A DNA stretch of 13,069 nt from a virus. Lineage: Duplodnaviria; Heunggongvirae; Uroviricota; Caudoviricetes. Numbering within the stretch: the stretch's first letter is position 1; the number at the start of each line of letters is the position of its first letter. The stretch lies in IMG/VR virus record IMGVR_UViG_2778261166_000004; one strand, given 5' to 3'. Under the pieces are notes generated by a model. The model saw only the letters and a program-made list of their open reading frames with translations. It ran no database searches and had not been told where the DNA came from. Both the position numbers and the translations under genes were made by a program. Positions 5,290-13,069 of this stretch are shown one piece after another.

Positions 5290-5393
5290 TGTTCACCTCT
5301 GTTCACCATAAGAAAAAAGATAAGTAATACAGTAATTTAAAGGGTGAACAATCGCAGTAATGACTGTTCACCGTCTGTTCACCACTGTTCACC
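5290..5393. repeat. ori-like cluster of type I iterons (octamer TGTTCACC, six copies in both orientations)
   Basis: Seen: TGTTCACC at ~5290, 5300, 5365, 5376, 5386 and inverted GGTGAACA at ~5343, followed by an AT-rich tract (5400-5480). It lies between the divergent late promoters, ~4.8 kb from the second iteron cluster, consistent with P4 ori versus crr. Confidence 0.7.
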
Positions 5394-7732: not shown

Positions 7733-10066
7733 ATGAAAATGAACGTAACCGCCACCGTCAGCCATGCGCTCGGCCACTGGCCGCGTATTCTCCCGGCGCT
7801 GGGGATTCAGGTGCTGAAAAACCGTCATCAGCCCTGTCCGGTCTGTGGCGGGAGTGACCGCTTCCGTTTTGATGACAGGGAGGGGCGCGGCACCTGGTAC
7901 TGCAATCAGTGTGGTGCCGGTGACGGCCTGAAACTGGTTGAAAAGGTGTTTGGTGTTTCCCCGTCCGACGCGGCCACAAAGGTGGCTGCCGTGACCGGCA
8001 GCCTGCCCCCGACTGACCCGGCAGTGACGGCTGCCGCCGGTGCTGAAACAGACGCTGCCCGGAAGAACGCCGCCGCACTGGCACAAACCCTGATGGCGAA
8101 AACCCGTCCCGGAACCGGTAACGCCTACCTGACCCGCAAGGGCTTTCCCGGCCGGGAATGCCGGATGCTGACCGGCACACACAGAGCCGGTGGCGTGAGC
8201 TGGCGTGCCGGTGACCTTGTGGTGCCACTGTATGACGACAGCGGCGAACTGGTTAACCTTCAGTTAATCAGTGCTGACGGCCGTAAGCGCACCCTGAAAG
8301 GCGGGCAGGTCAGGGGCACCTGTCACATCCTTGAAGGACAGAATCAGGCCGGAAAACGTCTGTGGATAGCGGAGGGATACGCGACCGCACTTACCGTGCA
8401 TCACCTGACCGGTGAAACGGTGATGGTGGCGCTTTCTTCCGTGAACCTCCTTTCTCTGGCCAGCCTTGCCCGACAGAAGTATCCGGCCTGTCAGATTGTC
8501 CTTGCCGCAGACCGTGACCTCAGCGGTGACGGCCAGACAAAAGCCGCCGCAGCCGCAGATGCGTGTGAGGGCGTTGTTGCCCTGCCGCCGGTCTTCGGTG
8601 ACTGGAATGATGCCTTCACGCAGTACGGCGGGGAGGCCACCCGTAAGGCCATTTACGATGCCATCCGGCCACCGGCTGAAAGCCCGTTCGACACCATGAG
8701 CGAAGCAGAGTTTTCCGCCATGAGTACCAGCGAAAAGGCCATGCGTATCTATGAGCATTACGGCGAGGCGCTCGCGGTCGATGCCAACGGCCAGCTTCTG
8801 TCCCGCTATGAAAATGGTGTCTGGAAGGTACTGCCACCACAGGACTTTGCCCGGGATGTGGCCGGGCTGTTTCAGCGTCTGCGCGCGCCGTTCTCCTCCG
8901 GGAAAGTGGCCTCCGTGGTGGACACCCTGAAGCTGATTATTCCGCAGCAGGAAGCCCCCTCCCGCCGCCTGATTGGCTTTCGTAACGGCGTGCTCGACAC
9001 GCAGAACGGCACGTTCCACCCGCACAGTCCGTCACACTGGATGCGTACCCTGTGCGATGTGGATTTCACCCCGCCGGTGGACGGTGAAACGCTGGAGACC
9101 CACGCCCCCGCGTTCTGGCGCTGGCTTGACCGTGCCGCCGGTGGCCGTGCGGAAAAACGCGACGTGATTCTGGCTGCACTGTTTATGGTGCTGGCAAACC
9201 GCTACGACTGGCAGCTCTTTCTGGAGGTGACCGGTCCCGGCGGCAGCGGCAAAAGTATCATGGCCGAAATAGCCACCCTGCTGGCCGGGGAGGATAACGC
9301 CACGTCGGCCACCATTGAGACGCTGGAATCCCCGCGTGAACGTGCCGCGTTAACTGGCTTCTCACTGATACGCCTGCCGGACCAGGAAAAATGGAGCGGC
9401 GACGGAGCCGGACTCAAGGCCATCACCGGCGGCGATGCGGTGTCCGTTGACCCGAAATACCGGGATGCGTACTCCACGCACATCCCGGCGGTGATTCTGG
9501 CCGTGAACAATAACCCGATGCGCTTCACCGACCGCAGCGGCGGCGTGTCACGCCGGCGGGTGATTATTCACTTCCCGGAACAGATAGCCCCGCAGGAGCG
9601 CGACCCGCAGCTTAAGGACAAAATCACCCGCGAGCTGGCGGTCATCGTGCGTCACCTGATGCAGAAGTTCAGCGACCCGATGCTCGCCCGGTCACTGCTT
9701 CAGTCCCAGCAGAACTCAGACGAGGCGCTGAACATCAAACGGGATGCCGACCCGACGTTTGATTTTATCGGCTATCTGGAAACCCTGCCGCAGACCAGCG
9801 GCATGTATATGGGGAACGCCAGTATCATCCCGCGCAATTACCGTAAATACCTCTATCACGCCTATCTGGCCTACATGGAGGCAAACGGCTACCGGAATGT
9901 ACTCAGTCTGAAAATGTTCGGGCTGGGGCTGCCGGTGATGCTGAAGGAATACGGACTGAATTACGAGAAGCGCCATACCAAACAGGGGATACAGACCAAC
10001 CTGACGCTGAAAGAGGAAAGCTACGGCGACTGGCTGCCAAAATGTGAAGACCCTGCAACAACCTGA
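7733..10066 (+). CDS. alpha: Alpha: bifunctional primase-helicase and origin-binding replication protein
   Basis: 777-aa ORF, the P4 Alpha length. It has an N-terminal zinc-binding primase motif (CPVCGGSDRFRFDD...WYCNQCG), a TOPRIM-like acidic region (LAADRD), and a Walker A P-loop (GPGGSGKS) in the helicase domain. RBS AGGAG. Iteron clusters flank the operon. Confidence 0.95.
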   Translation: MKMNVTATVSHALGHWPRILPALGIQVLKNRHQPCPVCGGSDRFRFDDREGRGTWYCNQCGAGDGLKLVEKVFGVSPSDAATKVAAVTGSLPPTDPAVTAAAGAETDAARKNAAALAQTLMAKTRPGTGNAYLTRKGFPGRECRMLTGTHRAGGVSWRAGDLVVPLYDDSGELVNLQLISADGRKRTLKGGQVRGTCHILEGQNQAGKRLWIAEGYATALTVHHLTGETVMVALSSVNLLSLASLARQKYPACQIVLAADRDLSGDGQTKAAAAADACEGVVALPPVFGDWNDAFTQYGGEATRKAIYDAIRPPAESPFDTMSEAEFSAMSTSEKAMRIYEHYGEALAVDANGQLLSRYENGVWKVLPPQDFARDVAGLFQRLRAPFSSGKVASVVDTLKLIIPQQEAPSRRLIGFRNGVLDTQNGTFHPHSPSHWMRTLCDVDFTPPVDGETLETHAPAFWRWLDRAAGGRAEKRDVILAALFMVLANRYDWQLFLEVTGPGGSGKSIMAEIATLLAGEDNATSATIETLESPRERAALTGFSLIRLPDQEKWSGDGAGLKAITGGDAVSVDPKYRDAYSTHIPAVILAVNNNPMRFTDRSGGVSRRRVIIHFPEQIAPQERDPQLKDKITRELAVIVRHLMQKFSDPMLARSLLQSQQNSDEALNIKRDADPTFDFIGYLETLPQTSGMYMGNASIIPRNYRKYLYHAYLAYMEANGYRNVLSLKMFGLGLPVMLKEYGLNYEKRHTKQGIQTNLTLKEESYGDWLPKCEDPATT

Positions 10067-10125: not shown

Positions 10126-10398
10126 GGTGAACAATCCACTGTTCACCCTTCACCGTATATTCACCTGTTATCACACTGAAATTAAAAGAGAAAAACGAAA
10201 GGTGAACAGTGTGAACAATCAAATCAAAAAAAACTTTTTTCTCCCTGTGTGATTTTCAGTACGGGGGATTAATCACCGGTATGAGTCACACCGGCAGAAT
10301 GCCGGAGGTGAAGAATCGAATGTTCACCCTTCACCCATTATTCACCACCTATCATACTGAAATAAAAGGAGAAAAAAGAAAGGTGAACAGTGTGAACA
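10126..10398. repeat. crr-like cis replication region: two ~77-bp direct repeats (about 10140-10216 and 10321-10398), each carrying TGTTCACC / GGTGAACA iterons
   Basis: Seen: the two copies align nearly base for base (tgttcacccttcacc...ttcacc...ctgaaat...gaaaggtgaacagtgtgaaca). An additional inverted iteron is at 10126-10133. The region is AT-rich and lies downstream of alpha. Confidence 0.7.
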
Positions 10399-10610
10399 GT
10401 TCTTTCGAAAAAAAAATTTTTATGTGGATAAAAGATGCACTGGTTTGGATCCGGGCTACGGATCCAAACTTACTGATTAAAAATTATTTAACTTTCCGAT
10501 TTATTGATGGGCTGAAAATAGATTGGTCAGAAAAACAGTGGGGGCACAAAAGGGGGCATATTTCATTGTTGTGTTTTATTATTTGTTTTTTATCATTAAC
10601 TTATTTTAAT

Positions 10611-10632
10611 GTTTGAGTCCGGCCTTCGCACC
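10611..10632 (+). other. Putative attR core: tRNA 3'-end-like sequence (gtttgagtccggccttcgcacc)
   Basis: It resembles the T-arm/acceptor end of a tRNA (GGTTCGAGTCCGGCCTTCGGCACCA-like, as recalled for tRNA-Leu leuX, the classical P4 attachment site). P4-family elements integrate into tRNA 3' ends and leave a partial copy at the far junction. Similarity is judged by eye. Confidence 0.4.
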
Positions 10633-10662
10633 TTCGCACCTTCGCACCTTCGCACCTTCGCA
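10623..10662 (+). repeat. Tandem octamer array (ccttcgca x5 perfect, plus a degenerate sixth copy to 10670)
   Basis: Seen directly. The unit is the distal end of the tRNA-like att core. Confidence 0.85.
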
Positions 10663-10866
10663 CCATCGGAACATCAATAGACATCAACGGACGTTTTTTT
10701 ATGACTGAAATCCGCGCCACACAAGGCTTTTCGCTATTTTTCGCTCAACCTAAGTCAACCTACATCAACTTACTGATGTGGATACAGCTACAGCTGCGGC
10801 TATATCCCGATTCGATAATGTTTGTACCCACACAAAACCCTTGAAAGGCTACAAGGCTGAAATTGT

Positions 10867-11052
10867 CTAAACCATAGAGATGATTTTTATGATCCAGTCT
10901 TTCTCTTGTTGAGATAGTTCCAGTTTGCTCACTCGTGTTAAGAAGGTATTGATCACCTGAACATCCGAATTGGTGAGCCTATTTAATAGAGCGGGTGGTA
11001 TACCTTTACTAACAATCGCTTTGCGGTGACTTTCGTAGTTTTTATTACTCAT
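10867..11052 (-). CDS. Hypothetical small protein (61 aa)
   Basis: ORF with GAGGA 8 nt upstream of the ATG. No family recognised. It lies outside the satellite, between attR and the HNH gene. Confidence 0.35.
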   Translation of the reverse strand: MSNKNYESHRKAIVSKGIPPALLNRLTNSDVQVINTFLTRVSKLELSQQEKDWIIKIISMV

Positions 11053-11108
11053 TGTTGATCCTCAAAAATCATTGTATGGCGGCATTGATCGTTTCCAGCA
11101 ACCTTTAC

Positions 11109-11351
11109 TTACTCACTTCGAACTGCATCCTCGTAGACTGTTCCACTACAATAATCGAAAAGGCGCGGATGTCCATTCAGGTATCCCGCTAATACGTATA
11201 GCAATAACAATGGCTTATGCGGCGCGCGCTGTTCACCCTTGTGCCAGATTTTTATATTGGCAATTGCCTGCTGTAGCGATTTACTGGAAGCCATTGATAT
11301 CCCTGGCAGTGAAATAATTGCGATCATGCTCGCAAATTTTCTGCTGTTCAA
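11109..11351 (-). CDS. Hypothetical small ORF (80 aa from TTG; 61-72 aa from internal ATGs); possibly a gene remnant
   Basis: The ORF-track start is TTG. Internal ATGs lack a convincing RBS. It is in a different frame from the adjacent 61-aa ORF, so the two could be a frameshifted remnant of one gene. Confidence 0.2.
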   Translation of the reverse strand: MNSRKFASMIAIISLPGISMASSKSLQQAIANIKIWHKGEQRAPHKPLLLLYVLAGYLNGHPRLFDYCSGTVYEDAVRSE

Positions 11352-11430: not shown

Positions 11431-12081
11431 ATGAATAAACTCCCTGATCATCTTCCGCGGCGGTATATCATCGAAGCTATCCATTTATGGGATGCGGGAG
11501 AAACTCATCAGTTCCAGCCTGCGCGGTTGTATGAGATTGAATATCATGGCCGACGTTACCCCTCGAAGGCGATTGCTGGCATCGCAGCGACATTGATGAC
11601 GGGGACGCAATTTACCCCTGCGGATTTCACCGGCGGAATAAAATCTAAATGTGTCAAGCTACTCATAGAGCAGGGATTTCATATTCATCTGGATAAAGCC
11701 GCTGCGGCTCCCATAGCCGACGTTCTGTTCCCGGATGAGTTGCCGTCGCAGGAGACATACCTTGAAGGTGCGGCGATAAAGGTGACAGTAAACCGCTATG
11801 AACGCGATAAAAAGGCCCGAGATAAAGCGGTCGAACATCATGGATGCCAGTGCAACGTATGCGGTGTTGATCTGGTGAAGATCTATGGTGATATCGCTGA
11901 AGGCTTTATCCATGTGCATCACCTGGTGCCGCTGTCAGCCATTAAAGAGGATTACCAGCTGGATCCAGTTAATGATTTGCTGCCTGTGTACCCTAATTGC
12001 CATGCGATGTTGCACCGACGCAAACCACCGTTTACGCCGGAGCAGTTAAAAGCGCTGATGGATGCGAATAAATCAAATTAA
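11431..12081 (+). CDS. HNH endonuclease family protein with an uncharacterised N-terminal domain (possible McrA-like modification-dependent restriction nuclease)
   Basis: 216-aa ORF. The C-terminus has an HNH-type motif set (CQCNVCG...HVHHLVPLS...N...YPNCHAMLH). The N-terminal ~100 aa is unrecognised. Confidence 0.7.
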   Translation: MNKLPDHLPRRYIIEAIHLWDAGETHQFQPARLYEIEYHGRRYPSKAIAGIAATLMTGTQFTPADFTGGIKSKCVKLLIEQGFHIHLDKAAAAPIADVLFPDELPSQETYLEGAAIKVTVNRYERDKKARDKAVEHHGCQCNVCGVDLVKIYGDIAEGFIHVHHLVPLSAIKEDYQLDPVNDLLPVYPNCHAMLHRRKPPFTPEQLKALMDANKSN

Positions 12082-12088
12082 TGAACGC

Positions 12089-13069
12089 TCACCTTTCGCG
12101 CCAAAACTGCAAAATTGCTTCTACAAACTTGTCAGAAATAATCCCCCGACGGGCTGCCGTGCTGAAATGACTGCTTCGCAGTGCCGTCGTCCAGTTCTCC
12201 GGTGACCGGTACGCTGAACCGTAATATCCCGTGCTTAAATCGTCCGGGTCTTCATCAGGCGCGTTCGTCAGTCCTCTTTCACCTTGTTGCTGGAAGTCGA
12301 CGAAAATAATATTGGCTAAAACATTATTTTGATAATTGCCATAAATAACTTCATACGCATGAGGGAAATTTTCTTTCCAGTACCAGGTGGTATCGCCGCA
12401 AAACCACGGTGCGTCAGTAATATTATTAAGCTGAGAATGGTATTGTTTTAGATCCCTACGAAAGGCTTCAACCATATGATTAAAGTGTTGAGGGTGTGAC
12501 GCGTAGTCACTGGTCATTAAGTCAAATTCGCCTTGCATCCAGCATACGCCGAGGAATTTGTTATGCGGATTTTTTGCCAGTGCGGCTCGCGTTCTGCTGA
12601 CTAAATCCTGGTATAGCGGAGTATCCGTTCCCCAACGACAAGCATCATGGCTGGCTCCGTGCCGTTCTGAATATGTCCCTTCGCTGCCCGCGGTAAAAGC
12701 CGATCCGCCACGGCAACACGGAACGATGAGAACCCCTGCATTATCAGGAATAAAGGGCAGTAATTTCCGTGCTATATGCAGTGCCTGGCCAACGGTGCCG
12801 TACTGTGTTTGATGATTCGTTGCCAGAGGATGGTGATAACCCTGCATATCCTGAACATCGTGTGGGCAGTGAGTCAGTGGAATAATGTCGTTAAAGTGAC
12901 ATGACGGGCCTCCGGGATGCGTATGCGCAAATCTCGCTAATTGTTTAATTCTGGGATGAGGCGCATCTTCCCTGTCCGGTAATGGCAGTCCTTCGCCATA
13001 CGCCATGGCATTAGACTGACCAGCAACGGTAAGAATATAGTAATAATCAGGCGATATTATTGCGTTCAT
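12089..13069 (-). CDS. nanS: Sialate O-acetylesterase (NanS/YjhS-like, SASA/SGNH-type)
   Basis: 326-aa ORF whose start is at the window edge. It has a GQSN motif near the N-terminus (TVAGQSNAMAYG), typical of sialate O-acetylesterases. Length and sequence match my recollection of E. coli YjhS/NanS, which lies near the leuX/fim region. Confidence 0.7.
   Translation of the reverse strand: MNAIISPDYYYILTVAGQSNAMAYGEGLPLPDREDAPHPRIKQLARFAHTHPGGPSCHFNDIIPLTHCPHDVQDMQGYHHPLATNHQTQYGTVGQALHIARKLLPFIPDNAGVLIVPCCRGGSAFTAGSEGTYSERHGASHDACRWGTDTPLYQDLVSRTRAALAKNPHNKFLGVCWMQGEFDLMTSDYASHPQHFNHMVEAFRRDLKQYHSQLNNITDAPWFCGDTTWYWKENFPHAYEVIYGNYQNNVLANIIFVDFQQQGERGLTNAPDEDPDDLSTGYYGSAYRSPENWTTALRSSHFSTAARRGIISDKFVEAILQFWRER

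Follow-up and report, generated by a model that had tools for sequence, protein, structure and literature searches.

A variable octamer repeat within an attR scar at the Escherichia coli leuX integration hotspot

Islands integrated at tRNA genes are marked at their distal end by a displaced fragment of the tRNA gene (the Islander concept, PMC4383910), and leuX is a recognised hotspot for such integration (PMC7545054). The attachment site of phage P4 (attP) reads cttattttgatgttt GAGTCCGGCCTTCGGCACCA ttcttac, with the 20-bp core annotated in the GenBank records (X05947, NC_001609). In E. coli 536 (NC_008253; locus L212, 42396), the right end of the leuX island PAI II reads GTTCGAGTCCGGCCTTCG followed directly by ACCACACCGTATGC, an 18-bp direct repeat plus a tRNA end that is 2 nt short. 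This attR is present in single copy, and its flank differs from that of the locus described here. When PAI II reintegrates, this is reported to be an event that "restores the complete tRNA gene" (PMC3202238).

The DNA analyzed here (the window; 13,069 nucleotides, IMG/VR record IMGVR_UViG_2778261166_000004) comes from an E. coli chromosome with an integrated P4-like satellite. A tyrosine integrase of the P4 family occupies positions 1-1260 on the plus strand (Pfam Arm-DNA-bind_3, Phage_int_M, and Phage_integrase), and the element is typed as P4-like because it encodes a 777-aa P4 alpha-type primase-helicase at 7733-10066 on the same strand (Pfam Zn_Ribbon_Prim, Toprim_3, D5_N, and Pox_D5). The satellite also encodes Psu, Ogr/Delta, and an Ash-family protein. 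The P4 type I iteron, TGTTCACC, is clustered at 5290-5386 and 10126-10382, which correspond to the satellite ori and crr, in agreement with the P4 annotation. Between int and psu, in the slot that holds cII, beta, and gop in P4, are two co-oriented, abutting minus-strand ORFs (1315-1899 and 1899-2825; 194 and 308 aa). Neither has a match in Pfam, PADLOC, or NCBIfam, and both are candidates for uncharacterised cargo carried in the variable region of the satellite. ARAGORN detects no tRNA within the window. Among complete genomes the closest is NZ_AP027946 (98.1% identical over 10300-11100), in which the satellite ends at the same site and int is preceded by leuX at a distance of 164 bp (loci L001/L003); the corresponding position lies to the left of the window's edge. 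Farther right of the satellite end, this relative carries nanM, nanC, and fimB, and the window ORF at 12089-13069 encodes NanS, with 319 of 327 residues identical to the K-12 protein. An intact gene for a 216-aa HNH endonuclease (11431-12081, plus strand) sits between the att relic and nanS, and its product weakly resembles type IV and phosphorothioate-DNA restriction enzymes. The annotation of relatives assigns an adjacent minus-strand fragment (~11140-11290) to a phosphorothioated-DNA-binding restriction endonuclease, the gene for which is intact in E. coli 536.

The satellite terminates in a P arm followed by 19 bp copied from the leuX 3′ end, with one G absent. The P arm (10420-10614, plus strand) was defined by comparison of P4 attP with a synthetic attP composed of the window's P arm, the core, and the P′ arm of a relative, the two being 99.2% identical. 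It contains two Int arm-type repeats, cagtgggggcac aaaagggggcat (~10537-10560), whose counterparts in P4 are annotated "attP arm sequence repeat." The core (10615-10632, plus strand), located by comparison with leuX of the relative (L003) and with the P4 attP core, reads GAGTCCGGCCTTCG-CACC, and its last part constitutes the first repeat unit of the array. It matches the leuX 3′ end, GAGTCCGGCCTTCGGCACCA, at 19 of 20 positions, with one G missing; the letters of the leuX 3′ end in NZ_AP027946 are GGTTCGAGTCCGGCCTTCGGCACCA. The missing G is located at 10628-10629 of the window. A first-pass annotation, made from the letters alone, had derived this attR from a tRNA 3′ end and placed the array at the right boundary of the satellite. 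Both proposals are upheld: the tRNA upstream of int in the close relative (the window itself has none) is leuX, with the same core sequence, and homology to genomes with other islands starts at the core. The tRNA-like stretch of that annotation is real, but it took in GTTT (10611-10614), which needs correction. GTTT belongs to the P arm and not to the T-loop of the tRNA, P4 attP reading gatgtttGAGTCC and the tRNA ggttcGAGTCC. Judged from these alignments, the site represents attR of a P4-like satellite that has integrated at leuX (tRNA-Leu CAA). A 111-aa ORF at 10281-10616 (plus strand; ORF list and P4 annotation), homologous to P4p05, is terminated by a TGA stop codon that runs two bases into the core.

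The variable array itself spans 10623-10662, with no strand assigned, and consists of five perfect head-to-tail copies of CCTTCGCA that start at 10623, 10631, 10639, 10647, and 10655 by exact matching (the exact array pattern being written as GGCCTTCGCACCTTCGCACC). The letters at 10600-10690 run ...cttattttaatgttt GAGTCCGG, five times CCTTCGCA, CC, and ATCGGAACATCAATAGAC.... Tandem Repeats Finder (TRF) reports 10623-10668 with period 8, 5.8 copies, 97% matches, and the consensus CCTTCGCA. Occurrences of the 16-mer CCTTCGCACCTTCGCA with up to two mismatches number five, against 0.01 expected from 200 dinucleotide shuffles. The five perfect repeats noticed at first reading are confirmed, and their interpretation as an amplified end of the att core was correct. 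The degenerate sixth copy reported with them, CCATCGGA (10663-10670, plus strand), directly preceded by the five perfect copies, proves by flank comparison to be something else, namely the CCA end of the core (10663-10665) joined to TCGGA of the native downstream sequence TCGGAAC. In locus L005, CACCATCGGAACATC follows an intact leuX, so the sequence of the supposed sixth copy is native there. Single-copy alleles (L144, L148, and L159) read CCTTCGCACCATCGGAAC.

The DNA to the right of the core has a history of its own. The core abuts TCGGAACATC..., the tRNA-proximal arm left by an older island at leuX, and alignment with L005 defines a remnant of this P′ arm at 10666-10860 (plus strand) from which int has been lost. 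Beyond the GGCACCA end of leuX, NZ_CP012379 continues with TCGGAACATCAATAGAC..., then a terminator hairpin, TCAAC-type repeats, and finally an integrase gene. Because the same arm there leads straight into the integrase and a type I R-M system, the right flank of the window is the arm of an older leuX island that lacks int. The flank also contains a decayed copy of the older island's leuX-terminator hairpin and TCAAC-type repeats at 10745-10773 (period 10 by TRF), which are likely arm-type sites. The alignment of the window flank with the L005 arm diverges ~10 nt before the ATG of the L005 integrase.

A comparison with unoccupied sites was made by searching 5426 complete E. coli genomes with a synthetic query in which leuX was joined to the right flank. 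leuX and the flank are adjacent in 315 genomes, 314 of which resemble NZ_CP012379, and the whole query is covered in just one, NZ_CM149868 (L004, 3171-3300). At this sole clean empty site, leuX leads directly into a terminator and then into the downstream DNA seen elsewhere, and the array is missing, which answers the question about empty-site alleles that the first-pass annotation had raised. It is also the one genome of the 5426 in which leuX is joined to this downstream region without an integrase-bearing element, so an unoccupied leuX is very rare. leuX fused directly to the array was found in none of the 5426 genomes, and K-12 MG1655 has no relic core within 8.5 kb to the left of nanS.

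Copy number was surveyed with a query of 14 units plus flank, from which copies were calculated as (127 - query_from)/8, a rule verified by direct reading of 18 loci. The flank is present in ~1007 of the 5426 complete genomes, and the array in ~46 of 60 evenly sampled flank records, or ~14% of the complete genomes. The evenly spaced sample of 60 records includes alleles of seven copies (one record), five (one), four (three), three (36), and two (five); the ranked list contains one allele of seven copies, six of six, 13 of five, and at least 40 of four. Complete genomes therefore carry two to seven copies, with three by far the most frequent, and the five copies of the window belong to the upper tail. 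Single-copy alleles with this flank occur only in viral contigs, and the 18 loci read directly range from one to seven copies, bearing out the earlier expectation that copy number could vary among isolates. The longest allele, in NZ_AP027829 (L007, 2990-3060), has seven units, including a mutated one that reads CCTTCTCA. This allele has also lost the left part of its core (gcggtgc in place of GAGTCC), with an IS2 nearby, and is thus a truncated att relic. A looser pattern, GGCCTTCGN{0,1}CACCTTCGN{0,1}CACC, run on genome contigs gave chance matches in GC-rich genomes, and among the matches listed only L070 was relevant. This 2.8-kb contig (CAKRJY010000038), labelled as an uncultured Lachnospiraceae MAG, carries an E. 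coli leuX-island junction with a four-copy array and is probably a mis-binned Escherichia contig.

Genomes with identical junctions on both sides differ by whole units. One yee-type junction occurs with four, five, or six copies, the P4 "gatgttt" junction with two, three, three, or four, and the "gatattt" junction with two or four. The array and the same right flank are additionally found beside at least six different left-hand elements, among them a yeeS/cbtA-type island, a DUF262/DUF3696 region (strain IAI1), an IS-disrupted region, a restriction-enzyme-bearing island, another element, and three P-arm variants of P4-like satellites. Because its left-hand neighbours are unrelated, the array does not belong to this satellite in particular but represents a haplotype of the chromosome at the leuX hotspot, inherited with the right-hand side. 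The alternative that the octamers are ordinary chromosome thus fails in that the empty site has none, and holds in the sense that the array is ordinary polymorphic chromosomal sequence passed on with the right-hand haplotype.

The one-G-short core proves to be a regularity that extends well beyond the array. In six proviruses for which both ends are available, attL has GG (the intact tRNA) in all six and attR lacks the G in all six. Among attR sites of viral contigs, 32 have the short core (29 single-copy sites and three arrays) versus one with GG. The short core is also present in 10 of 10 contigs that encode an identical 111-aa ORF and in four of four tandem-satellite junctions from metagenomes, which have the structure P arm-core-P′ arm. 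Ends of satellites that share at least 99.2% identity across 1.8 kb adjoin four flank types and have the short core each time; this comparison was ungapped and, since indels confounded many pairs, used near-identical pairs alone. The short core accompanies the P arm whatever the right flank, and the number of G residues thus tracks the left-hand partner, tRNA or P arm. These patterns suggest that wild satellites bear the short core in attP and that crossover takes place to the right of the missing G, in the terminal GCACCA. We favor a short core borne by the element; a scar that forms recurrently after integration is possible, and less probable. Three observations count against the element-borne core. 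Phage P4 attP has GG, and a diverged array allele is common to different left elements. The third concerns PAI II, whose 2-nt-short tRNA end explains why excision leaves leuX incomplete; the reported restoration of leuX on reintegration implies, for that integrase, a crossover to the left of the defect. Exact P4-type attP junctions, with GG or the short core, were found in no viral contig. A search for attP junctions gave none in the 5426 E. coli genomes and none among plasmids, with only P4 itself among phages, and the wild attP-like junctions seen are the tandem-satellite ones only. One metagenome contig, OGRX01000413 (L213, 1533-5871), contains two different P4-like satellites in tandem with no tRNA between them, in the order alpha gene of one satellite, junction, and int of the next.

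The array probably arose as a variable-number tandem repeat (VNTR) by replication slippage within attR at the leuX hotspot and is probably without function. Where the one-G-short core meets TCGGAA, it generates CCTTCGCA followed by CCATCGGA, which are identical at six of eight positions and form a period-8 proto-repeat; at other flanks the corresponding identity is two to four of eight. Just three arrays exist in 2.9 million viral contigs, each with the TCGG (TCGGAAC) flank, and no array is found among the 29 single-copy P4-like attR sites of viral contigs, which have 16 other right flanks. The 10 contigs with the identical 111-aa ORF have other flanks and are all single-copy; the identical protein is found beside four different right flanks. 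A diverged allele shared by L009 and L209, whose left elements differ, contains the hybrid units CCTTCGCC and CCATCGCA, which fit mispairing between core and flank units. Slippage is favored because copies change within one junction class and because arrays sit only at the junction with the 6/8 proto-repeat. The first-pass annotation had offered repeated integration and excision or slippage as the source of the repeats; the observed within-junction changes and the restriction to the proto-repeat flank support the second, and nothing indicates that the array is a record of the first.

A sequence of events can be proposed on this basis. The junction of the one-G-short core with the TCGGAAC flank would have created the proto-repeat, and slipped-strand mispairing would then have yielded a first duplication, as the population patterns suggest. 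Further slippage presumably continues to add and remove whole units. The array would remain in the chromosome while elements at leuX are replaced; as it travels with the right-hand haplotype, the exchanges of left elements are likely to have crossed over to its left. Some considerations temper the slippage account. The first duplication would depend on weak microhomology. Three copies dominate strongly, which may point to a locus that is fairly stable and not hypermutable, and part of the variation may be old. The genomes are phylogenetically non-independent, so occurrence at only this flank may reflect a single origin and not a predisposition of the sequence.

Several other explanations of the array can be weighed against slippage. 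In one, which we think unlikely, the short core and the array together would constitute a natural map and brake, with satellites crossing over only in the terminal GCACCA and never rewriting the tRNA and the array separating the attR half-sites and lowering excision of any island at leuX in a manner that is heritable and reversible by slippage. A functional role as spacer or "lock," by which 8n bp between the attR half-sites would curb or block excision at leuX and changes in copy number would tune island stability, is improbable. The array does lie inside the core, where half-site spacing matters to the integrase; leuX is rejoined to the array in no genome; and arrays are missing from other flanks, as if array-bearing sites released no array-carrying circles. 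Repeated exchange of left elements beside the array shows, however, that the site is not recombinationally dead, and copy number shows no sign of being under selection. We give similarly little credence to a recombinase scar, in which the 8-bp unit would be the integrase overlap, duplicated when staggered cleavage is aborted and repaired or when site-specific exchange is misaligned, such that the array counts failed or repeated integration-excision events. The period of 8 falls within the 6-8 bp overlap range of tyrosine recombinases, the array is exactly within the att core, and the unit includes GCACC, where natural variation places the satellite crossover. Yet ~40 other P4-like attR junctions with the same core and integrase family have no arrays, copies both increase and decrease within one junction class, and E. 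coli lacks efficient end joining; the hybrid units of L009 and L209 are also better explained by slippage. An array owned by the satellite, either carried in attP or representing extra P4 alpha iterons near crr, is largely refuted and very improbable. The array lies ~220 bp from the crr iterons, and its best phase, TTCGCACC, has five of eight bases in common with the type I iteron, but the three mismatches in eight amount to no iteron match and this candidate was rejected. The same array moreover adjoins non-P4 islands, and single copies are found in near-identical satellites at other flanks, in all four metagenome P arm-core-P′ arm junctions, and in phage P4 attP. An assembly or sequencing artefact, conceivable given that some platforms can miscount short repeats, has a negligible probability for an array of 40 bp, well under read length, that occurs in discrete copy classes in hundreds of independent complete genomes.

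Slippage without functional consequence also agrees with the searches for functional elements. The interval 10300-11100 contains no promoter-like site. No terminator lies at the array itself, the sole terminator-like site of the interval being on the minus strand, ~175 nt downstream. The array follows the stop codon of the 111-aa ORF and is spanned by no ORF in the ORF list. A phase-variable contingency locus was rejected, the array lying outside any coding region or promoter and having no spanning ORF, as was a tRNA or other RNA gene, given the ARAGORN result and an Rfam search with no relevant match. The array is most likely a neutral slippage product.

In itself, a neutral-looking repeat at an att scar is of little importance. 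It does provide a cheap length marker for a leuX hotspot haplotype found in about one in seven E. coli genomes. As a natural tag, it also shows that the att remnant on the right endures when satellites and pathogenicity islands to its left are exchanged. It is also a warning for island-boundary software, which is built to expect one displaced tRNA fragment. The more interesting lead is the regularity of the one-G-short core, which bears on the position at which P4-family integrases cut.

The array is a new yet ordinary VNTR at an att scar, and both the repeat and the site are of kinds already known. Literature searches found no paper containing the repeat string and nothing relevant for leuX in combination with VNTR. 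The attachment system is that of P4 in its 99%-identical P arm, Int arm-type repeats, core sequence, and target tRNA, and the order of the element is the same, with int beside the tRNA, as seen in NZ_AP027946, and alpha/crr beside attR. The P4 attP core differs in having GG and a single copy, whereas the attR of the window has one G fewer and five copies of CCTTCGCA. Islander-type fragments and the 18-bp repeat of 536 PAI II, GTTCGAGTCCGGCCTTCG, are likewise imperfect copies of a tRNA 3′ end at the far boundary of an island, but they are single copies, in contrast to the tandem amplification seen here, in an allele common to many unrelated islands. With bacterial VNTR/MLVA markers and contingency loci, which vary by slipped-strand mispairing, the array shares perfect head-to-tail short units, whole-unit differences between alleles, and identical flanks. 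Unlike those repeats, it lies outside any gene or promoter, covers a short range (1-7 copies) with one dominant allele, and has an origin that can be traced to a proto-repeat att junction.
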